DNA of 11,229 nt, from the IMG/VR virus record IMGVR_UViG_2778261502_000002, positions 1-11,229 of that record. One strand, 5' to 3'. Below the pieces are notes generated by a model. It did not search any database, was not told where the DNA came from, and was given only the letters and a program-made list of their open reading frames with translations. The stretch is from a virus. Lineage: Duplodnaviria; Heunggongvirae; Uroviricota; Caudoviricetes. The position numbers were made by a program, and so were the translations under genes. The stretch's first letter is position 1. The number at the start of each line of letters is the position of its first letter. Shown here piece by piece: positions 85 to 11,229 of this stretch.

Positions 85-276
85 ATGTTCGCGCTGGTAC
101 TTTTTGTTTGCTACCTGGATGGCGGTTGTGAAGATATTGTTGTGGATGTCTACAACACGGAACAGCAGTGTCTTCATTCTATGAGCGATCAACGGATCCG
201 CCAGGGCGGTTGTTTTCCGATTGAGGATTTTATAGATGGTTTCTGGCGACCTGCGCAGGAGTACGGTGATTTTTAA
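85..276 (+). CDS. yebW: small conserved protein, YebW-like (63 aa)
   Basis: Frame is open from position 1 (track ORF 1..276); the internal ATG at 85 gives a 63-aa product MFALVLFVCYLDGG... Its stop abuts the pphA stop (276/277). Identity is recalled from the K-12 yebW-pphA neighbourhood and not verified. Confidence 0.4.
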   Translation: MFALVLFVCYLDGGCEDIVVDVYNTEQQCLHSMSDQRIRQGGCFPIEDFIDGFWRPAQEYGDF

Positions 277-933
277 TTATTGCAATTGCACAAGAGTCAG
301 TTCGCCCCCAAAGACAGCACCGGTATCAATATAATGCAGGTTGCCAATATCCACGCGATGTCGCAACGGTGTATGACCAAACCAGAAATGATCAGCACCT
401 GTAATTCCCTGCCCTTTTGGGCGTTCACCTAATCGTGAGCGGCTCCACAAGACCTGATGCAAATCAACGTCCTTTTGCCATTCATAAACATCATCTGGAT
501 AATCGGCATGAGCAATAACATGTTTGCCGGTGCGGCTGTGTACTTCAAGAATAAAGGGCAAATGCTGACATTTTTCCAGCGCCGTTTTCGCTTGTTTCTG
601 TTGATTATCTGCCAGCGCAATAAACCAGTCGCCGCCATTCATCAACCACAAAGACATCTGCTGGGATGCCAGCGCATCCATCGCCATCTGTTCATGATTG
701 CCTCTTACCGCACGAACCCAATGTTGTTCCAGTAACTGCAGACAACGTAAACTTTGCGGCCCACGATCGATAACGTCTCCCACTGAGATAAGTAAATCTC
801 GCCACGGATCAAAACGACAATGCCATAATTTGCGGCGCAACTGCTCAAGACAACCGTGTATATCGCCAGAAAGCCAGATATGTCGCCATTGATGACCCGC
901 AATTCTCTGATAAACGGGCGCAGGCTGTTTCAT
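277..933 (-). CDS. pphA: serine/threonine protein phosphatase 1 (lambda-phosphatase-like metallophosphoesterase)
   Basis: The track ORF 277..936 starts at a TTG; the first ATG is at 933, giving 218 aa MKQPAPVYQRIAGHQWRHIW... Metallophosphatase motifs GDIHG, GDVIDRG and GNHE are present. The adjacent SdsR-like fragment favours pphA over pphB. Confidence 0.8.
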   Translation of the reverse strand: MKQPAPVYQRIAGHQWRHIWLSGDIHGCLEQLRRKLWHCRFDPWRDLLISVGDVIDRGPQSLRCLQLLEQHWVRAVRGNHEQMAMDALASQQMSLWLMNGGDWFIALADNQQKQAKTALEKCQHLPFILEVHSRTGKHVIAHADYPDDVYEWQKDVDLHQVLWSRSRLGERPKGQGITGADHFWFGHTPLRHRVDIGNLHYIDTGAVFGGELTLVQLQ

Positions 934-1397: not shown

Positions 1398-1535
1398 TCA
1401 TTTATCTCCGACCGGACACTTCTTATACAAAGTCGATACGCCAACATCATAGATGATCGCCACCTTCTGGCGAGAAACTCCTGATGCAATTAGTCGTCCA
1501 GCCTGCGCCCATTGCTCCGGCGTGAGAGTAAGACA
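1398..1535 (-). pseudogene. C-terminal remnant of a Pin/Gin/Hin-family DNA invertase (HTH DNA-binding domain only)
   Basis: Minus-strand translation gives ...LTLTPEQWAQAGRLIASGVSRQKVAIIYDVGVSTLYKKCPVGDK*, closely resembling the Gin/Pin C-terminus as I recall it. The frame is closed by a TGA at 1554-1556, so only about 45 residues survive and there is no catalytic domain. Confidence 0.6.
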
Positions 1536-1610: not shown

Positions 1611-2156
1611 ATGAACATTAGTGAACTTAAAAACTGTATACACTATGAAGTAATAGGTTATAAACGCCCTTTCTCCTGGCGAAAAGCAATTGTTCGCGCA
1701 ATAAAACACAGAAGATTACGTTATTTATTTTGGTGGCGCATAGCAAAATATCTTTTTGATAAAGGCGGATACCGGCGAAAGGTTGCAGGAAAAATAGAAC
1801 GCTTCATTCTTGATAAATACAATGTAACCGTTCCCTTAACTGTAAATATTGGTAAAGGGTTCGACATATCTTATCTCAATGGCGTTGTTATCGGTCACAA
1901 AGTTACAATAGGTGAAAATTGTTCAATTAAGCCTGGAGTAACTATTGGACTTCGCGGTGAATTTAATGATATGGATATTGTCATAGGAAATAATGTAACC
2001 ATCGGCTGTAACGCCACCATCCTTGGTGGCAAAGTGCATATAGGGAATAATGTAAAAATAGGAGCTCATGCATTGGTACTGCATGACATTCCTGATGACT
2101 CCACATTCATTACTAAATTTCACTCTGAAATTATTTATAACTCATCTCACACATAA
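1611..2156 (+). CDS. hexapeptide-repeat (left-handed beta-helix) O-acetyltransferase, WcaB/CysE-like
   Basis: 181-aa ORF with ATG start and tandem hexapeptide repeats (VIGHKVTIGENCSI, VTIGLRG, IVIGNNVTIGCNATILGG, VHIGNNVKIGAHALV). GC content is visibly lower than the flanking phage genes. The only plus-strand gene inside the tail-fibre locus. Confidence 0.7.
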   Translation: MNISELKNCIHYEVIGYKRPFSWRKAIVRAIKHRRLRYLFWWRIAKYLFDKGGYRRKVAGKIERFILDKYNVTVPLTVNIGKGFDISYLNGVVIGHKVTIGENCSIKPGVTIGLRGEFNDMDIVIGNNVTIGCNATILGGKVHIGNNVKIGAHALVLHDIPDDSTFITKFHSEIIYNSSHT

Positions 2157-2166
2157 TTCCGTTTAA

Positions 2167-2739
2167 TCACAGCTCTGGCCATACGATATCCGGGGCTGTA
2201 TTTATATCAATCCGACTCACTAATACCCGGTATTTTTTCCAGGAAGATAGCATCGAGACTTCTTCATCAGTTGCCATTTCAAAATTAACAGCATCCTGCA
2301 GAATTGTTATGTTATCAGTCGCATCCTGGATTAATCTTGCCTTTTTCTCTTCCGCCTCCCGGATCCGGAACAGTTTTTCTGCTTCTGCATCTTTCACCCA
2401 AGCTGTGCCGTTCCACTTCTGAAACTCCCCATCCGGCGACAACCAGGTGACATTTTCCGGTAATGGGCCAAGTTCAGAAATAAATAACGCGTCGCCGGAA
2501 GCCACGTCATAGACGGTTTTATCCCGATGGTCTTCAACGAGATGCCACGATACCTCATCACTGTTGAAAACAGCCACAAAGCCAGCCGGAATATCTGGCG
2601 GTGCAATATCGGTACTGTTTGCTGGCAGACCTGTATGAGGCGGAATATATGCGTCACCTTCACCAATAAATTCATTAGTTCCGGCCAGCAGATTATAAAT
2701 TTTTATGGTCCGTGCTTGTTCAGTCATTCTGAAATCCAT
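2167..2739 (-). CDS. tail fibre assembly protein (Tfa; lambda Tfa / Mu U family)
   Basis: 190-aa ORF, ATG at 2739 with AGAGGT ribosome-binding site 5 nt upstream. Sequence [41 protein letters not shown]... matches the Tfa family as recalled from K-12 TfaE/TfaR. Confidence 0.85.
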
Positions 2740-2747
2740 GTTTACCT

Positions 2748-3650
2748 CTACTTAATATCAGAGACAGAATATTGTTTATTGAGCGTATGGGTGTGAGCAC
2801 CAATAACGATGCTACTTCCGTGGCTATGTGCGCCAGAGGTGACATTACCTACGGGATTTTCTGGATTAATCCGATGTATATGCGAATCAGGGCGAAACCG
2901 GTTATTAGCCTGATGTTGTATCAGTACATCATCAGCCTGATGTTCAGGATTAATACAGACCTGCCCGGAACGTGAGCAATACGTCCGATAATCGCCGCAT
3001 CCAATATATTTAGTATCCGCATAACGGCAAACAGAATTACCCGGACAGTATGCATATGTGCCAAATACTGCCGACTGGCGAGATTGTGCGTATTCCCAGT
3101 TAATTGATTCTGTTTTTTTATTAAAGTTATCCCAGGCCTGCTTCATCTGGCGGGCAACACTTTCAAACGGCACCTGACCACATCCGGCCCCCATTGCAGG
3201 GAATACCACCGTGGTTATTTTCCTGTCTGTTGTTGCGTTTTTATTGTGCTGAAAGATGGCAAGTAAAGCGGCCCACGTAGCGTTATATACAGCGTCTGTT
3301 CCATCAATTGTCAGCGGAACACGCATTGTTGGCGCATGTACCAGCCAGGGGTGATGATTATGCCCCGTTTCAATCACAAATGCAGAACCTACAGGCTGTT
3401 CGCCTAGATATTCACGAAGAATATGATTCTGAACGCGGGACTGTAACTGAGTACCGAAGAATGCGGTAATGGCGGCATCAACGCCTCCATCCATCAGGCC
3501 GAAACTATTTGCCGCACTTACCATGCAGTCAAATTCTCTGATTGTTTCAAATGGCTTTCCGACAATATTCACATTATCTGCATTTGCGAATACCCGCTTA
3601 AATGCTTCAGCCATTTCTGTTACTGGTGCAGAAAGAATGAGCGTAATCAT
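2748..3650 (-). CDS. macro-domain protein (ADP-ribose-binding/processing fold) with Cys-rich, HxH-containing C-terminal module
   Basis: 300-aa ORF whose ATG (3650-3648) overlaps the fibre gene stop as ATGA, with a GAGG site upstream. The N-terminal ~175 aa carry the macro signature: [18 protein letters not shown] (N-x6-GGVD loop) and [14 protein letters not shown] (second phosphate-binding loop). They align colinearly with YmdB/MacroD as recalled. The C-terminal ~125 aa have 6 Cys and HIH/HSH/HTH motifs. Confidence 0.7.
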
Positions 3651-4762
3651 GCAAGCCTCACAATATAGTTAAATGCGATGTTTTTGACGGTGTTTTCCGC
3701 GTTACCAGCAGCGTTAACGGTGATGGTGTGTCCATGTGAGCCAATTGCAACGGAGTGCGTATGTGCACCAATACCGACAGTATGTGTATGCGCCCCAGCA
3801 CTTGCTGCAGTACCTGATACTGAGTGGGTATGCGCGCCAGCAGAATTCGTTGCACCTAAGTGAGTTTGAGCAGAGTTCGACGAAGCTACTCTACCGGAGC
3901 TAACGTTAGCATTATCCCCCTGAGATATCGGATGCGTATGTGCACCTGCTGAAGCTGCTGTTCCGCTAACGCTATGGGTATGCGCACCAGTGTTATTCGT
4001 AGATTTAGTTCCATAATCAAACGATGATGTGTTTTTTGTCCCTAAATCTGTATTTGAAGCACTGGCGCTGTGGGTGTGCGATTTAATGCCGTCCTGTTCC
4101 AGGCTAAGAACATCACGTCCACTTGCAGGCTTACCTTTGATTGTCCAGCCACGCATATCAGGGATCACGCCTGACGGATAAGCGGCTGCAAGTTTCGGGT
4201 ATGCAGACTTGTCAAAAGTCTGTCCCTGCATCAGAGCATAACCAGATGGAACTGTATCTGATGGCCACGGGATCGGGGCACCTACAGGAAAGGTCGAATT
4301 ATTTTCCAAACCAAGATATTTAAGGACATCAGCAACAGAGCTTTTTGCCAAAATATCTCGCCCAACCTGTGTCAGGTCAGCCAAATTAGCGGTATCTTGA
4401 TTGGTAAAATACGGTAATTTGTTTTCGGATGCTGAAAGATTAGCAAGTGCGGTAAGTATGGCATTAATTCTCTGATAGTTCTTATCTAATGCAGACGACA
4501 TTTTTGCGATAAAGCCGGCCTGATCGCCATCGTCCTGTACATCCAGTCCACTTTCATTTGCTGTATATTGTGCTATTGCAGATGCAATAAAGCTGGCCTG
4601 CCGAATAACCTTATTGACTTGCGCACTGGATGCTTTCCCTGCTGTAAATCCGGATAAAAGCGCAGGCAACGCTTCCCATTCCTCCTGCGACATAACATTG
4701 GCATTTTTACCCGTTGCGAATGCTTTAAAGTCATTTTTTGCCATCAGAGTAATACTCCCCAT
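3647..4762 (-). CDS. side tail fibre protein with HxH-repeat distal domain
   Basis: 371-aa ORF. An alternative ATG at 4744 overlaps the upstream gene stop (TGATG) and may be the true start. The C-terminal third contains seven HxH motifs and a duplicated 19-aa unit [19 protein letters not shown]. Position between baseplate genes and tfa fits a fibre gene. Confidence 0.8.
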
Positions 4763-5424
4763 GCCCCTACATCAAAACCACTGATAAATTCGTTATCCAT
4801 ATCAAAACCAAAAAATTTTGAACCTTCCGATGGGGTTTCCACCGAAGGTGTTTCAATGCCACCCGCCCACACCCCGGCGGCTTTTACTGTGAGATATCCC
4901 TGTTTAATTGCAGCAATTAACTCACGCGATACATCTGAAATATCTGTATCAGGAAAGGCCCAGACCGATATCGTCATGTCCTGGTTATCGACAATCTGCA
5001 TTCGCAGCCCGGATCCTGCTGTCGCCGCGTCAAGAATTGCTGGAAGCGAATCATTCCGTCCGTCCCAGTTATTAATCGCAATCTTCGCTTTAAGGATGAC
5101 ACGATAAGTTTCATCGCTGAGGTACATGTATCCGTAATCAGGATCGTATGGCCCCTGCCATACACCCTGATCATATCCAAGCCCGTCGGTATCCCAGCTG
5201 AAATAGACACCTGAGATAAGCTGGCTGACAACACGACTACGTCCGATCCACAATCCCAGAATGTCAAGTTGCACACCAACCGCGGAGTCAATATCAAATG
5301 CAGTAATCAACCCTCTGGTGGCCGCCGCAACATCAATAAGCGGCCGGGTCATCAGATCAACATGCGCAAGAAATTTAGGTTTGGTGGCGTGGTAGTTCGT
5401 GATTAGTTCGGTGTATTTGCTCAT
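4744..5424 (-). CDS. baseplate protein, Mu gp48 / P2 gpI-like (YmfQ/DUF2313-type)
   Basis: 226-aa ORF whose ATG overlaps the J-like gene stop (ATGA at 5421-5424). Assignment rests on position between the J-like gene and the fibre gene, plus family resemblance. Confidence 0.7.
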
Positions 5425-6620
5425 GACTCCACCGTTATAACGATATTTTCCGGGGTACAGGACGCAGATTCGTTATATCTGATATCAATGTTTGATGACG
5501 ACAAAGCCCCCGGAGATTTACCAATCGTCAGTTCCTGAATATCGTAATAGCGTGCATTCCCGCCACTCACCACGCCAAGATTCGCCGGTGAGTAAATGCG
5601 ACTTAAAAGGACCGAATCACCGATCGTCAGACTATTGATATAGTCGGAAATAGCCTGCTGGATCTGCTGCCCTATCTGTGAGGTATAACCCGTAAAAACT
5701 TTTAATTTAATCCGGGCATAAACAGGCACATCACTGGAACGCGAGAATTTGATTACATGGGGATTGCCGTATTTATCCGGAACCGTAACGGATGTTGTAC
5801 CGTGAGTGGCTGTCCCCTGGCCTTTATTCCCTCTGATAGCCTGAGCAATATCCGTTACATCACCGCCATCCACAATTACAGCAACAGAGTGTGGCGGTAA
5901 CCCGTTACCGTCCTCCGAACCAGTATCGTTTTCATAGAGTTTGTGGCGGGTTACACCGGTAACATTAGAAACAGCACCATCCAGTGCTTCAAATGGGGTT
6001 ATTGATGGCAACGCAACACTTTGCGACTGGCGGATACGTAACTCCGCATCAGTTTCTGCCGGAGTGCCCACAGTAGCCGCAGCAGGATTAGTTACCGAAA
6101 CCCAGCCACGGGTTGGCGTATTAATTTCAGTGATAGTTCCAGCCAGCGCCGCCACTGCACCACTGACGGAACATTTTGCGGTCACCATCACTGTACCATC
6201 CACGCCGACCACCACTGAAGCAGGCAAACGCCATATCACATTATTACTGTCTTTCACGCTGCCATTAATGATGGTTGTTCCGGCAGTTCCTGTAAGAAGC
6301 AAATCAACCGTAGAATTCGTCGCGCCTTTACGTGAAATACCATTTATTTTCACGTTACTGGTCAGTGCAGCCCCATAGCCGGTTGCCGGTGAAAAACAGT
6401 TGTAGACAGTTATCGCCATATTATTGGCATCATGAATCGCCAGCGCCATCAGAGCCACCATCTGGCCGTCTTTGCTGTCCGGTTCGAGGTAGGCATCACT
6501 GCCATAAATCTGCTGAAAATAGCTAATCAGGGTGCTGAGTATCGTCTGATAATCAGGCGCACTGATCCCCTCCGCGGTTACCTTTGCAGATAAACCGAGA
6601 GAATCAAGGTTCAGAGCCAT
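5421..6620 (-). CDS. baseplate J-like protein (Mu gp47 / P2 gpJ / T4 gp6 family)
   Basis: 399-aa ORF, ATG at 6620 overlapping the upstream stop (TAATG). Size and position in the spike / gp25-like / J / I gene order support the call. Confidence 0.75.
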   Translation of the reverse strand: MALNLDSLGLSAKVTAEGISAPDYQTILSTLISYFQQIYGSDAYLEPDSKDGQMVALMALAIHDANNMAITVYNCFSPATGYGAALTSNVKINGISRKGATNSTVDLLLTGTAGTTIINGSVKDSNNVIWRLPASVVVGVDGTVMVTAKCSVSGAVAALAGTITEINTPTRGWVSVTNPAAATVGTPAETDAELRIRQSQSVALPSITPFEALDGAVSNVTGVTRHKLYENDTGSEDGNGLPPHSVAVIVDGGDVTDIAQAIRGNKGQGTATHGTTSVTVPDKYGNPHVIKFSRSSDVPVYARIKLKVFTGYTSQIGQQIQQAISDYINSLTIGDSVLLSRIYSPANLGVVSGGNARYYDIQELTIGKSPGALSSSNIDIRYNESASCTPENIVITVES

Positions 6621-6973
6621 TACGCCTCCGATGTAACAGTCGTTATTCCATAGAGAGTGTCGATTTCAGCGGAAAACATGACACGTCGGGTCGTGGTATC
6701 CACCGTCGTATTGAAAGAGAGGATTGATTTAACGCCCCGCGTTTCGAGGATGCGCTTACGGATCGCCAGGTTGTAGGTTTCCGGCTTCTGCTTACCGAGT
6801 ACGGACTGGATCCACGGAGTCCCCTCGGTGGTGTCGAGAAACCATTGCCCATACCACAATTCGAATCGCGTTTTTACCGCCTGCGCCACGGCCTCCGGTG
6901 AGTTAATCAGCCAGGTGTCATCACCGCTGCCAAAGGTGTAATCGCCATCGGCGTCTTCACGTCTGTATCGCAT
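6620..6973 (-). CDS. small baseplate protein (gpW/gp25-like, Mu gp46 position)
   Basis: 117-aa ORF, ATG at 6973 overlapping the spike gene stop (ATGA). Assigned by size and position between spike and J-like genes; the family call is tentative. Confidence 0.55.
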   Translation of the reverse strand: MRYRREDADGDYTFGSGDDTWLINSPEAVAQAVKTRFELWYGQWFLDTTEGTPWIQSVLGKQKPETYNLAIRKRILETRGVKSILSFNTTVDTTTRRVMFSAEIDTLYGITTVTSEA

Positions 6974-7725
6974 CAGTTTACCCCATCGGTATTGCTTCCA
7001 CCGCGCTGAACACCGCCATGAGTGTGCGTATCATCGATTGGCTTGCCGTTAGCCTTCACGCTACCCAAAAACTCAACAGCACCAGTGATTTTTGAAGCCA
7101 CACCAGAAACAACAGACCCCACCATGCCACCCATCCAGGTTAACAGGCCATGAATGGTTACTTTCTCAGAAAAATCAGCCAGGGGGGCAACCACATCAAG
7201 CCCCCCCGGAGCGACAATTTTAATTTTCCTGGTATCAGGATTAAGCTCAAAATAGGTGCTGCCGTCGTCACTACGCAACTGTGTGGCACTGGTATTAATA
7301 CCGCTAATCTTCCTAGCTTGCGACTGGGGACCGACAATACAAAACGCATCCGATAAATCATGCATTCTGTCATCAACAGGCTCCTGTATCCCGCCGCTCT
7401 GCCACCAGAAATCAATACAACGATCGGCAAAAACGACAAGACACTCATCCCCGGCTTTTACCGGAAAAGTCAACGTACAGCCTCCGCCGCGCGGGAATAC
7501 CACTGGCACATCCACCAGCAGGGGTAATGTCGTCGACTGGTTGATTCCATTTGAGTCCGGCTCATAGCCTTTAATCGCAGGTTGAACAACCACTGTTACC
7601 GTGTCCGGATCAAATGACTGGACGATGCCGGGCATAGAAACACGCAGCGCCGACATGACAGAGCCAGCAAGTCTTACATCGGCCTGTTCTTTGCTACCAA
7701 GTTGAGCGCTTAAAGAAACGGGCAT
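6973..7725 (-). CDS. baseplate spike / assembly protein V-like (Mu gp45 / P2 gpV family)
   Basis: 250-aa ORF, ATG at 7725 with a GGAGA site 7 nt upstream. Contains a GDECLVVFADR segment that fits the gpV N-terminal fold as I recall it. C-terminus GKPIDDTHTHGG has an HxH motif as in metal-loaded spike tips. Confidence 0.7.
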   Translation of the reverse strand: MPVSLSAQLGSKEQADVRLAGSVMSALRVSMPGIVQSFDPDTVTVVVQPAIKGYEPDSNGINQSTTLPLLVDVPVVFPRGGGCTLTFPVKAGDECLVVFADRCIDFWWQSGGIQEPVDDRMHDLSDAFCIVGPQSQARKISGINTSATQLRSDDGSTYFELNPDTRKIKIVAPGGLDVVAPLADFSEKVTIHGLLTWMGGMVGSVVSGVASKITGAVEFLGSVKANGKPIDDTHTHGGVQRGGSNTDGVN

Positions 7726-7744
7726 TCATATGTCTCCAGAAAGT

Positions 7745-7766
7745 AAAAAACCCGCCGGGTGGCGGG
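7745..7766 (-). terminator. rho-independent terminator for minus-strand transcription
   Basis: Perfect 6-bp GC stem CCCGCC/GGCGGG (7751-7756 and 7761-7766) with a 4-nt loop, followed on the minus strand by UUUUUU (7750-7745). Lies 19 nt downstream of the small membrane protein gene stop. Confidence 0.7.
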
Positions 7767-7784
7767 TTCATTATTGAAGTTTCA

Positions 7785-8024
7785 TTACTGCTTGTTTGCT
7801 TCTAACGCTTCAGCTATTCGGCGAAGATACTCATTGTTTTTAAATGAAACCATGATGCACTCAAAGAATATTCGGCAAAATACAGCACATAACAAAAGCA
7901 CTAAAGCGCCAGCAGCCTTCCCATTAACAAACGTTATAATGGCGGCAACAACCAGAAGTAACATTGTGATGCCATACAGAACGTTGATGATTTTTGGAGT
8001 TATTAATTTATCAAATCCGAACAT
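7785..8024 (-). CDS. small membrane protein (79 aa, two predicted TM helices), moron
   Basis: ATG at 8024 with AAGGAA site 9 nt upstream. Two hydrophobic stretches: ITMLLLVVAAIITFV and AAGALVLLLCAVFCRIFF. Low GC. Flanked by its own promoter-like sequence and terminator. Confidence 0.55.
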   Translation of the reverse strand: MFGFDKLITPKIINVLYGITMLLLVVAAIITFVNGKAAGALVLLLCAVFCRIFFECIMVSFKNNEYLRRIAEALEANKQ

Positions 8025-8060
8025 GTGACAAATTCCTTATCGTGAAAGTAGAAGTATCAC

Positions 8061-8088
8061 ATTATAATTACGAGTGATTAATCAACAA
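8061..8088 (-). promoter_or_regulatory. candidate sigma70 promoter (TTGTTG-N16-TATAAT) for the small membrane protein gene
   Basis: On the minus strand, -35 TTGTTG is the complement of 8083-8088 and -10 TATAAT is the complement of 8061-8066, with a 16-nt spacer. It sits about 35 nt upstream of the ATG at 8024. Sequence-only prediction. Confidence 0.35.
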
Positions 8089-8163
8089 TCTTTTTGCATG
8101 GAAAGGAACCGATGATTTTCGGCGCATCCATGCTGTTCTGCAGAAGCTGGACGCCAATGTAAT

Positions 8164-8499
8164 TCACTTCACCTTCCGGCAATCATACGTCCAGAACTCC
8201 CGAGGCTCGTCCATATTTTTGCGGATAACTTCAACGTTGAGGATCGCTTTTTTGTTTCGTTTGATGTAGTCCATACCTAACCAACGTCCAGTATTAGGAT
8301 CAGGTAACATCCATTGCATCATGACATTATCGAAATCGTCTTTTTGTTTCAAAAAGGTCATTTTTTGTGTTTCTGGCTTTTGACCATTGATGTGCATGAG
8401 GCCATCATTACCAGCATCAAAGCGGAATGGTCCGCACTGCGTTGCCGCCGAAACTGTTAACGGCAGGGCCAAGAATAAACAAAAAAATACTTTTTTCAC
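8164..8499 (-). CDS. secreted/periplasmic small protein (111 aa, signal peptide), moron
   Basis: GTG start at 8499 overlapping the hub gene stop (GTGA), with a GGAG site 7 nt upstream. N-terminus MKKVFFCLFLALPLTVSA|ATQ is a typical Sec signal peptide with a VSA cleavage motif. Two Cys in the mature part. No lipobox. Confidence 0.6.
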   Translation of the reverse strand: MKKVFFCLFLALPLTVSAATQCGPFRFDAGNDGLMHINGQKPETQKMTFLKQKDDFDNVMMQWMLPDPNTGRWLGMDYIKRNKKAILNVEVIRKNMDEPREFWTYDCRKVK

Positions 8500-9530
8500 T
8501 CTACATCTCCGACTTTGTCCAAAGTGCCTTTTGCCAATAGTTCTTTGCCACCTTTAGCCAGGCAAAGCAGGTCCATATACCACGCCTGCCCTCGGGTGTC
8601 GCCAGTATAATCAATGCTGCCCACAATGTAATCACCGTCAGTATTAATGCTGGCAGGCTGTGACATGCCTGGCAGACCGTTAACGTAGAGATTACCGTCG
8701 CTTTCAGACTCATCCAGTAGTGCTGGCGATTTCGCTACCTGGTCATTACTCAAAGAGGCACGGTATACAGATGCCTGATCCAGACGAATAAGCCCACCGA
8801 GCTTAATATTTGGATTAATCAGACATCTGACATTTACGCCAGCTCCCATCGTCTGCTGTGGCATACCGATAAGCCCGGTGTTAGCATTCAACACCGTAGC
8901 AACACCAATATATTTATCTTCAGGAACAATATTTACCAGATTATTTTCATACCACCAGTTAGCCTTACACTGCCCTGCGATATGATTCATCAACCTTGAT
9001 GTGTTTTGATAAACAACGCGACCCCGGGGAAATACCGTTTCAGGCATGTCAGGAACTGCGCCGGATTCGATGCCATATGGTTCGAATGATTTCATACCCA
9101 GACTGAAAAGATCTCTGTACTTCCAGCCAGCTGCCACTGTGGTTTTCACACTTGCGTTCAGGTGGCCTTCCCAGCTGTCAATACACTGCAACATGATCCA
9201 ACTGTCTGTGGCATTATCTTTACCAGTGACAGTAAAACGGATATCTCCATTGAATATCATACCAACGTTTTCATCAGGATAATTACCTGCTGCATCCGGT
9301 TGCCCCTTGTATCCGGCAATAACCTGTATACGCGAAAACTCCTTCTGCATAATCCGGTTCTGAGTGGTAGGGGACAGGTTATAAACCTTAAAATTCCCAA
9401 CGAATCCATTGAATATGGTCGCAGGCATTTTCTGAATATTGAAAGTGACTTTAAGCTCAGAAATTTTTATCCCGTCGCCCTTATCATCAACAAGCAATAA
9501 TTCAAAGTGACGCATCCAGTTTTTCGACAT
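8496..9530 (-). CDS. baseplate hub / tail protein (Mu gp44 / P2 gpD-like), putative
   Basis: 344-aa ORF, ATG at 9530 with GGAG site 6 nt upstream. It immediately precedes the spike gene block in Mu-type order. The family call is by position and size only. Confidence 0.55.
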   Translation of the reverse strand: MSKNWMRHFELLLVDDKGDGIKISELKVTFNIQKMPATIFNGFVGNFKVYNLSPTTQNRIMQKEFSRIQVIAGYKGQPDAAGNYPDENVGMIFNGDIRFTVTGKDNATDSWIMLQCIDSWEGHLNASVKTTVAAGWKYRDLFSLGMKSFEPYGIESGAVPDMPETVFPRGRVVYQNTSRLMNHIAGQCKANWWYENNLVNIVPEDKYIGVATVLNANTGLIGMPQQTMGAGVNVRCLINPNIKLGGLIRLDQASVYRASLSNDQVAKSPALLDESESDGNLYVNGLPGMSQPASINTDGDYIVGSIDYTGDTRGQAWYMDLLCLAKGGKELLAKGTLDKVGDVE

Positions 9531-9532
9531 TG

Positions 9533-9835
9533 TTACTCCGTGAAAACATAGAGGTGTGAGAGCGTTCCAAGATCGAATTGCGTCGGATTCTCCTGCCCTG
9601 CCACGTCGCAGAGCACCACCAGAGAAAAACCCAGATCCATATATCGATACTGTGCCAGCAGGTCAGCCCCCGTAATCATCGGTATACCTGATATAATGGC
9701 GGAGCCATTGCTGTCAGCAAGATCCAGAACCCAGTACTCGCCTCGCCAGATGACAGACAGGTGATAAACCGAACCGTTAATTGTGGTGGCAAAAGTCTGA
9801 TTGTCAGCAACCAGTGGGATTTCTACGGCTTTCAT
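9533..9835 (-). CDS. hypothetical phage tail-module protein (100 aa)
   Basis: ATG at 9835 with AAGGTGA site upstream; the stop lies 2 nt before the hub gene start. No family recognised. Confidence 0.5.
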   Translation of the reverse strand: MKAVEIPLVADNQTFATTINGSVYHLSVIWRGEYWVLDLADSNGSAIISGIPMITGADLLAQYRYMDLGFSLVVLCDVAGQENPTQFDLGTLSHLYVFTE

Positions 9836-9838
9836 GAA

Positions 9839-10198
9839 TCACCTTCCCAGAAATAAATTGCTCAAATACCCATCAACAGTGGAGATACCTTCTTGCGCCA
9901 TCTGTGGCAGCGATTTCAGAATGGAATTATTCGGCGGCACCGTTGTTTTGGTGCCTGTATTCTGCACAGCAGACGTTCCGACTCCCTCGGTCATATTGTT
10001 TTTCGGGGCAATGCGAATACCTTTGCGGGTCATATCATCCGGGATAGCATCGACTGCTTCGCCGATGATCCAGGACGAACGATAGGACCATTCCACCAGC
10101 ATGCGGTTACGACTGGTGAAATTAGCCCGGTAGGTGGATGCAGAGTGCTGGTTAGGTGTCTGCATCCCTAATGGGCGACGCAACATACCAGGAAACAT
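9839..10198 (-). CDS. hypothetical protein, possibly the 3' fragment of a truncated upstream tail gene
   Basis: 119-aa ORF. An in-frame stop lies 27 nt upstream of its ATG, and its 5' end overlaps the start of the plus-strand exonuclease-like ORF, so the start context looks non-native. Confidence 0.3.
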   Translation of the reverse strand: MFPGMLRRPLGMQTPNQHSASTYRANFTSRNRMLVEWSYRSSWIIGEAVDAIPDDMTRKGIRIAPKNNMTEGVGTSAVQNTGTKTTVPPNNSILKSLPQMAQEGISTVDGYLSNLFLGR

Positions 10199-11229
10199 TC
10201 GATGAAGAGAATCAGGTTGAAGCTAAGGAAAATGATCCGGAGGAAATGGAAGGCGCTGAACATCCGCACAAGGAGAACGCTGGCAGCAATCCGCATTGCG
10301 ATTGCAGTGATGAAGCTGGTGAAGCGACAGCACCTGTAGAAACTGAAATCATGTGGCCGTCATATTTCGAGCCAGGCCGCTATGAAAACCTCCCGAACGA
10401 GGTTTATCACTCCGCCAACGGAATAAGCAGCACAATGCTGAAGGATGCCCGCATCAGCCTGATGTATTACCACGGACGGCACATTGCCGGAACTATTCCG
10501 GGCGAGGAAAGTGATGCATTGCTGCGTGGGCGGATTATTCACAGCTATGTTCTGGAAACGGATAAATTCGCTGATGAGTATGCCATTCCGGTACCGGTTC
10601 CTGAATATGTGGTTACTACTTCTAACGAACTGATCGCCATCATTAAAAAACACAATGCCAGTCTGCCAGCACCGATGACACCAGAGCAGATGAAAGAGTG
10701 GATCGAAAGCTACAACAGCACTCTTATACAGCCACTGTCGGTAAGTGCCGGGGCCGAAGAAACAGGCATCCTTTACTGTTCGCTTCCGGAGGAATTCCGG
10801 CGTATTCCTGAGGGGGAAAAACACACAGCATCAGCAATGAAAGCCTGTATTAAAGAATACAACGCAAACCTCCCTCCTCTGTTGAAAACCAGTGGATCAC
10901 GGGAGCAACTTCTGGAGCAAATTGAAACTGTAGATCCAGAACTGGCAAAAAAAGAACGTGCTAAATCTTTGCCTTACAACATCAGTGGCACAAAAGAGCA
11001 ATTAACCGAAATCGCACGGAAAATTCGCCCGGAACTGGTGACACTGGAAGACTGGCAAAAACGCCAGCAAGAAGAAAACGCCGGGAAAACGTTTATCAGT
11101 CCGGATATGTATGAACAGGCAAAAAATATTCACGCTGCACTGCAAAACAATACCGATGCAGCAAGGCTACTCAACCACCCGGATCGCAAATCTGAAATCA
11201 GCTATTTCGGGTTTGATGAAGAAACCGGG
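10171..11229 (+). CDS. partial ORF (at least 353 codons, runs off the window end), putative phage exonuclease (RecE/exonuclease VIII-like); 5' end uncertain
   Basis: Long open frame not in the ORF track because it has no stop within the window. An in-frame TAG lies at 10153-10155; candidate starts are ATG 10171, 10246 (GGAGG upstream) and 10351. The product is acidic and K/E-rich. The exonuclease assignment is from weak recollection and needs a search. Confidence 0.45.
   Translation, partial: MGDATYQETFDEENQVEAKENDPEEMEGAEHPHKENAGSNPHCDCSDEAGEATAPVETEIMWPSYFEPGRYENLPNEVYHSANGISSTMLKDARISLMYYHGRHIAGTIPGEESDALLRGRIIHSYVLETDKFADEYAIPVPVPEYVVTTSNELIAIIKKHNASLPAPMTPEQMKEWIESYNSTLIQPLSVSAGAEETGILYCSLPEEFRRIPEGEKHTASAMKACIKEYNANLPPLLKTSGSREQLLEQIETVDPELAKKERAKSLPYNISGTKEQLTEIARKIRPELVTLEDWQKRQQEENAGKTFISPDMYEQAKNIHAALQNNTDAARLLNHPDRKSEISYFGFDEETG

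Follow-up and report, generated by a model that had tools for sequence, protein, structure and literature searches.

Gene content of the window

We analysed a stretch of DNA of 11,229 nt, referred to here as the window. As shown in Table 1, two chromosomal genes of Escherichia coli, yebW and pphA, occupy its left end, and bases 1-1526 were 98.6% identical to the pphA region of E. coli CFS3292. Phage-type genes follow, among them an acetyltransferase gene whose counterpart in E. coli RM8082 is annotated as serine acetyltransferase, the tail fibre genes and an intact baseplate operon. The operon encodes, from the left, a DUF2612 wedge protein (226 aa), a Baseplate_J protein (399 aa), a wedge or sheath-initiator protein (117 aa) and a spike (250 aa), and further to the right a DUF4282 protein (79 aa), a 111-aa protein, a hub (344 aa) and a plug (100 aa). 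All eight open reading frames (ORFs) had the same lengths as those in the intact prophage of E. coli 8178. Remnants of a baseplate gene, a portal gene and recE lie to the right of the operon and meet at two junctions, designated A and B.

Table 1. Features of the window, with junctions A and B.
Feature	Position	Strand	Remarks
yebW	85..276	+	chromosomal flank left of the prophage; PF07358 (DUF1482), E 2e-35; collinear with RM8082 and CFS3292
pphA (serine/threonine phosphatase 1)	277..933	-	chromosomal; borders the prophage left end; Metallophos domain
Pin-type DNA invertase, 3' stump	1401..1529	-	residues 143-184 of 184; 39/42 residues as in CFS3292 PinE
Hexapeptide-repeat (serine) acetyltransferase	1611..2156	+	moron at the prophage left end; PF00132, E 1e-13
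Tail fibre assembly protein	2167..2739	-	PF02413 (Caudo_TAP), E 1e-37
Macro-domain protein, 300 aa	2748..3650	-	between fibre and fibre-assembly genes; PF01661, E 2.6e-18
Tail fibre protein	3647..4762	-	phrog_295, E 7e-135; Collar and Phage_fiber domains
Baseplate operon, 8 genes	4744..9835	-	intact; Pfam and PHROG matches
Baseplate gene, 3' end	9839..10010	-	final 56 codons and stop; first ~160 codons of the 216-aa gene deleted
119-aa ORF	9839..10198	-	spans junctions A and B
Junction A	10010..10011		baseplate-gene remnant / portal remnant; ~11.4-11.5 kb missing; 1-base microhomology (A at 10011)
Portal (DUF1073) stump	10011..10170	-	codons 26-79 of 488; 160 bases
Junction B	10170..10171		portal codon 26 head-to-head with recE codon 559; ~17.9-18.9 kb missing; 0 microhomology
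recE (exonuclease VIII), 3' part	10171..11229	+	codons 559-911 of 1047; runs off the window end

Head-to-head ORFs and the 119-aa chimera

Two ORFs face each other at the right end of the baseplate region. The plus-strand frame of the ATG at 10171 is preceded by a TAG stop at 10153-10155; from the ATG, 353 codons follow without a stop up to the end of the window. The minus-strand ORF of 119 aa extends from an ATG at 10198 to a stop at 9839. An earlier reading of this DNA, made from the sequence only, had noticed that the 5' ends overlap, and the overlap measured 28 bases (10171-10198). That reading saw no room for promoters at the junction; in agreement with it, a consensus scan of both strands found no sigma-70-like site nearby. 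Promoter-like sites were not enriched in 7000-11229 either, where five were seen and 6.4 were expected from shuffled sequences.

The 119-aa ORF is a three-part chimera spanning both junctions. Its codons 1-9 are antisense recE. Residues 10-63 correspond to residues 26-79 of a 488-aa portal protein of the DUF1073 family (53 of 54 identical to the CFS3292 portal), and residues 64-119 are joined to them in frame and correspond to the C-terminal end, residues 161-216, of a 216-aa "phage baseplate protein". Aligned with residues 156-216 of the 216-aa protein of CFS3292, residues 59-119 of the ORF were identical at 57 of 61 positions. The sequence-only reading had taken the ORF for a fragment of a tail gene, which holds for the 56 C-terminal baseplate residues and fails for the antisense recE codons and the portal part. 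It had also proposed one junction; a junction exists, in the form of two breakpoints, 10010/10011 and 10170/10171, that enclose the 160-base portal stump.

The DNA at 10011-10170 matched the portal gene of phage vB_EcoM-606R2 and of that phage's relatives at 98.8% identity. The stump aligned with positions 33-86 of 587 of phrog_146, and with positions 6-32 of 357 of the Pfam profile Phage_portal_3 at 21.7 bits, under the cut-off of 33.8. A full-length portal protein comprises about 490 aa, of which only residues 26-79 of 488 are present here. The stump was no more diverged than the remaining segments of the window.

The start ATG of the 119-aa ORF falls within antisense recE sequence, and no Shine-Dalgarno motif was visible upstream of it when the sequence was read. 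The ORF, for which the scan gave no promoter-like site either, is most likely a meaningless by-product of the rearrangement, and it should not receive a gene annotation. From the gene content we infer that the head-to-head overlap of the two ORFs is a meaningless by-product too.

Anatomy of the junctions

Three-way alignments of the window with both parental sites were used to resolve each junction to a single base. At junction A the baseplate-gene parent reads ...CGGGGCAA/CCCTGAC, the portal parent ...GACGTGA/TGCGAAT and the window ...CGGGGCAATGCGAAT, where the slash marks the breakpoint. At junction B the portal parent reads ...CATCCCTA/CGCGGG, the recE parent ...GCGCGGTG/ATGGGCGAC and the window ...CATCCCTA/ATGGGCGAC. 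Identity to the intact relatives left of junction A was 99.5-99.9% and stopped at 10009-10011. Identity breaks at a single base, with 97-99% identity on each side, are far beyond chance.

No repeat, insertion sequence or recombinase site was involved at the joins. Homologous and site-specific recombination at the breakpoints were considered and rejected, as the parents share 1 base at junction A and none at junction B. This scarcity of microhomology indicates that both joins were probably made by illegitimate, homology-independent recombination. The rearrangement could have been a single complex event, with two template switches or with a break repaired by a captured fragment, or else two successive deletions. 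An island of 160 bases with a large deletion on either side would be an unlikely coincidence if the deletions were independent, and the balance tips towards one complex event, for instance two template switches. Among 5,426 complete E. coli genomes, none carried one junction and lacked the other.

The truncated recE gene

Over its whole length the plus-strand fragment matched residues 559-911 of the 1047-aa RecE of E. coli FDAARGOS_1059, with 343 of 353 residues identical (97%). Megablast searches of the 5,426 complete E. coli genomes gave recE matches of 97-98% nucleotide identity that started exactly at base 10171 in thousands of them. The C-terminal PD-(D/E)XK nuclease domain of RecE (Pfam DUF3799) was recognised from the identity to RecE, from an alignment with the crystallised nuclease domain (PDB 3H4R) that begins at fragment residue 77, and from a match to positions 500-752 of 883 of phrog_607 (E 9.5e-69). 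The match to the DUF3799 profile itself scored 16.9 against a cut-off of 26 bits because the window stops short of the conserved C-terminal half. The N-terminal Exonuc_VIII region of RecE (PF06630; about 550 residues) was absent, and the DNA upstream is portal sequence of the opposite strand.

The first residue of the fragment is the equivalent of Met535 of K-12 RecE. The nuclease domain of K-12 RecE comprises residues 564-866 (PMC11611040), and the retained ORF begins 29 residues upstream of that boundary. Judged from its sequence, the gene has lost its 558 N-terminal codons and keeps the entire nuclease domain as far as the window reaches; as such, recE would here be a 5'-truncated pseudogene or remnant.

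The allele differs from that of K-12: 42% of residues matched K-12 RecE over fragment residues 1-202, and no alignment was obtained past about 202. The acidic linker upstream of the nuclease domain (window 10171-10350) was about 90% identical to K-12 RecE, and the nuclease domains aligned weakly. Many phage recE genes have in common only a linker stretch of about 150 bases, which looks like a conserved joint of exchangeable modules.

Comparison with intact prophages

Intact prophages of about 43 kb occupy the site between pphA and yebY in three E. coli strains, 8178, RM8082 and CFS3292. All four segments of the window were collinear and co-oriented with all three. Read from the left, the minus strand of the intact relatives carries a late region with the fibre genes, the baseplate genes, the gene for the 216-aa protein, tape measure, chaperone, tube (DUF3277), sheath (DUF3383), head and portal genes. 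Terminase, lysis genes, Q-like genes, the replication genes ydaV and ydaT and the first of two divergent helix-turn-helix (immunity) genes come next on this strand. The plus strand then carries the second immunity gene, kilR, ydaE, a racC-like gene, recE, recT, ralR, xis and int, and chromosomal yebY follows.

Measured against this order, the window lacks two blocks. Block A (11,374 bp in CFS3292 and 11,520 bp in 8178) spans codon 160 of the 216-aa baseplate gene to codon 80 of the portal gene and contains the tape measure, tube, sheath and head genes and most of the portal gene. Block B (17,922 bp in 8178, 17,998 bp in RM8082 and 18,932 bp in CFS3292) spans portal codon 25 to recE codon 558 and contains terminase, lysis, Q-like and replication genes, both immunity genes, kilR and the 5' half of recE. 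Three genes were cut at the breakpoints: the 216-aa baseplate gene, the portal gene and recE. The best matches to the window were 98-99.9% identical (99.9% to CFS3292 over 7700-10011); the best relative differed by segment, and the exact parent was absent from the collections.

These results support what had been suspected from the sequence. The sequence-only reading held that sheath, tube, tape-measure, head, lysis and regulatory genes were missing between the two ORFs, and the three intact relatives confirm it. Homology searches showed that both ORFs are truncated: the RecE fragment covers residues 559-911 of 1047, and the 119-aa ORF comes from a doubly cut portal gene and the 3' end of a baseplate gene. 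In the relatives the head and tail genes sit between the baseplate genes and recE, and to the right of recE there are recT, ralR, xis, int and yebY. The large deletion that was proposed to join an early-type gene to baseplate genes is borne out by the loss of about 30 kb against the three prophages. So is the suggestion that the element is probably defective, given that the lytic-cycle modules of its collinear relatives are missing. An integrated position is indicated by yebW and pphA at the left end of the window, the relatives being located between pphA and yebY. The losses of 11.4-11.5 and 17.9-18.9 kb, with three genes cut at the breakpoints, mark the element as a defective prophage.

The interval is thus very probably the scar of a deletion of about 30 kb inside an integrated temperate E. 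coli prophage, in which the 3' part of recE, a portal stump and the baseplate genes were joined. As the comparison shows, the parent type is a prophage at the pphA-yebY site with a leftward myovirus late region and a rightward early-left arm of the Rac type, kilR-recE-recT-ralR-xis-int. Against it two blocks are gone, A of about 11.4 kb and B of about 18-19 kb, with 160 bases of the portal gene left between them. Judged by gene content, the element would be without replication, lysis, DNA packaging or tail building. Its baseplate and fibre genes would be stripped of the late promoter and the Q-like gene, and its recE nuclease-domain ORF of the early promoter. The window ends at recE codon 911, and the presence of recT, xis, int, the att site and yebY further right is deduced from the relatives.

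The recE piece might instead have come from another Rac-like prophage elsewhere in the chromosome, in which case junction B would be a large chromosomal deletion, an inversion or a transposition. E. coli genomes hold up to nine matching places, nearly all of them recE copies, and the window stops before any right-hand flank. In addition, a short-read contig described below breaks 30 bases into recE, which suggests a further recE copy in the same genome. However, in the three intact prophages at the pphA site a recE of this long allele type is found, equally oriented, 30 kb rightward of the baseplate genes, the top recE match (98.2%) is itself at the yebY locus, and an internal deletion requires no additional assumption. 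We consider a rearrangement between prophages improbable.

Occurrence of the junctions

The Logan contig SRR3957146_54, a short-read assembly reported in two samples, was 100% identical to positions 4154-10200 of the window (6,047 bases). Both junctions lie inside it, and it stops 30 bases within recE, which is how a k-mer assembler should behave where a true junction borders a multi-copy gene. Junctions A and B were absent from the 5,426 complete E. coli genomes searched by megablast, and neither had an exact match among GTDB species representatives. Junction B, the only one scanned for in JGI metagenome contigs and IMG/VR, had no exact match there, and the exact 119-aa protein was not in a collection of 15 billion proteins. 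Among the collections searched, one Logan contig alone carries the junctions.

Such rarity, and the fact that recE is a multi-copy repeat, could mean that an assembler joined reads across repeated phage sequence and that the junctions do not exist in the cell. We judge this highly unlikely: the junctions share 0-1 bases and offer no repeat to collapse, a separate assembly reported in two samples has both of them at 100% identity, and a 160-base stump between two clean joins is an atypical pattern of misassembly. The internal deletion is probably private to a lineage and recent. That it is recent is suggested by the surviving genes, which are undamaged and share 98-99.9% identity with their counterparts in intact prophages.

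The same searches bear on whether the window represents a purposeful element, a satellite or a tailocin-like particle that needs just the baseplate and fibre genes, all of which are intact. The configuration was absent from the 5,426 complete E. coli genomes, which argues against a propagating type of element. Sheath, tube, tape measure and lysis genes are missing, and truncated stumps lie at the borders. An R-type tailocin dispenses with the head but needs sheath, tube, tape measure, baseplate and lysis functions, whereas the element has no sheath (DUF3383), tube (DUF3277), tape-measure or lysis gene. The tailocin-type genes missing from the window all fall in blocks A and B of the relatives. 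A purposeful element of this kind is barely conceivable, and the baseplate and fibre cluster should be regarded as part of a non-inducible prophage remnant, neither a tailocin nor a live phage.

Position of junction B within recE

The base at which recE begins at junction B is the first of an in-frame Met codon, a property of 19 of 3,144 positions (0.6%) that was spotted post hoc. The retained recE starts at this native in-frame Met (Met559), upstream of a complete nuclease domain, and the coincidence is unexplained under random deletion. One could suppose that the outcome was selected, that is, that the deletion was kept for a RecE reduced to the nuclease domain and starting at Met559. Presumably together with RecT, it would form a natural, unrepressed minimal RecET system comparable to the sbcA activation of K-12 recE. 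The exact placement on the A of the ATG speaks for such selection, as does the start at the equivalent of K-12 Met535 just before the domain at K-12 residues 564-866. The nuclease domain alone can substitute genetically for full-length RecE (PMC11611040), and the repressor gene is among those deleted.

The expression signals speak against it. The closest plus-strand promoter-like site to the recE ATG at 10171 was at 8380-8408, about 1.8 kb upstream, by a consensus scan that leaves room for weak transcription or for read-through. Upstream of the ATG, the plus strand runs antisense to a 9-kb operon. The sole Shine-Dalgarno-like motif read from the sequence was AGGTG, 13 bases from the ATG and poorly spaced. 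Besides having been noted after the fact, the ATG coincidence concerns a Met that becomes the called gene start whenever recE is interrupted upstream, which makes Met559 merely the first ATG before the nuclease domain. Selection for the truncated RecE appears quite unlikely. In a related proposal the deletion would have been retained through the removal at once of the repressor, kilR and the lethal lytic functions, with minimal RecET made from read-through or cryptic transcription; we give it very little credence.

The ATG at junction B also raised the question of an engineered construct. This was rejected, as the recE is a natural 1047-aa allele and not that of K-12, and its neighbour is a portal stump and not a vector. 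A protein search with the recE fragment, meant to recover the right flank, gave a 490-aa protein with the same start Met (P0003). It was rejected as a further instance of the deletion, as its contigs show an interruption of recE upstream or a contig end.

In two metagenome contigs (L009, 345-3512; L010, 231-3398) recE is split into an N-terminal ORF of 547 aa and a nuclease-domain ORF of 490 aa, the latter starting at a Met (MGDATYQ...) where the recE fragment of the window begins. Interruption of RecE just before the nuclease domain may be a recurrent state.

Relation to known elements

Loss of modules by deletion is how, in the textbook account, Rac of K-12 and similar cryptic prophages came about. 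Rac recE shows no evident expression in K-12 without further mutation, as known from sbcA genetics. The element resembles Rac, and DLP12, e14 and Qin in general, as a chromosomally fixed lambdoid prophage that lost essential modules by deletion. Its intact relatives have the early-left order of Rac, kilR-ydaE-racC-recE-recT-ralR-xis-int, and recE of the element would, as in Rac, lack evident expression without a further mutation. Unlike Rac, which is at ttcA, the element is at the pphA/yebY site and has a late region of the myovirus type. Its recE is cut at the equivalent of K-12 Met535 and its immunity region and kilR are gone, whereas Rac retains the immunity region and kilR. The deletion allele, found in 0 of 5,426 complete genomes, is private, which is a further difference from Rac.

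The closest relatives are the prophages of 8178, RM8082 and CFS3292 and the induced phages vB_EcoM-606R2, 611R5, 689R2 and 683R1, which have the same gene order and orientation and 96-99.9% nucleotide identity in each retained segment. They carry 29-30 kb that the element lacks, and in some of them the left-end fibre and invertase region is of another type, as in CFS3292 with its intact pinE. The retained ORF is also comparable to the N-terminally truncated RecE used in recombineering (nuclease domain, PDB 3H4R), in that it keeps the whole nuclease domain as far as the window reaches. The alleles differ, the element has no engineered promoter or ribosome-binding site, and any expression of its recE is putative.

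The scar is the result of ordinary prophage decay, and its importance beyond annotation is slight. It shows cleanly, at base resolution, how a prophage can be disarmed: through one or two deletions independent of homology it would have lost every lethal function (replication, kilR, lysis and packaging), with the peripheral cargo genes spared.

Minor features of the retained left part

The gene for the 79-aa DUF4282 membrane protein (7785-8024, minus strand) inside the baseplate operon is moron-like, and the intact relatives conserve it. A strong terminator-like hairpin comes after it at 7748-7769, with nine pairs (six of them G-C) and then a T run. The PADLOC scan of the Macro-domain gene and other small genes gave no match to a defence system. 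The counterpart of the invertase stump in RM8082 and 8178 is annotated as an incomplete helix-turn-helix pseudogene. The stump appears to reflect an older loss of the fibre-inversion switch, common to these two strains; pinE is intact in CFS3292. At 1401-2156 the stump adjoins the acetyltransferase gene of the opposite strand in DNA of low GC content (0.35-0.39). The cassette of fibre, Macro-domain, fibre-assembly and acetyltransferase genes has a copy of about 90% identity on E. coli plasmid records of 94-101 kb (H97-H100).
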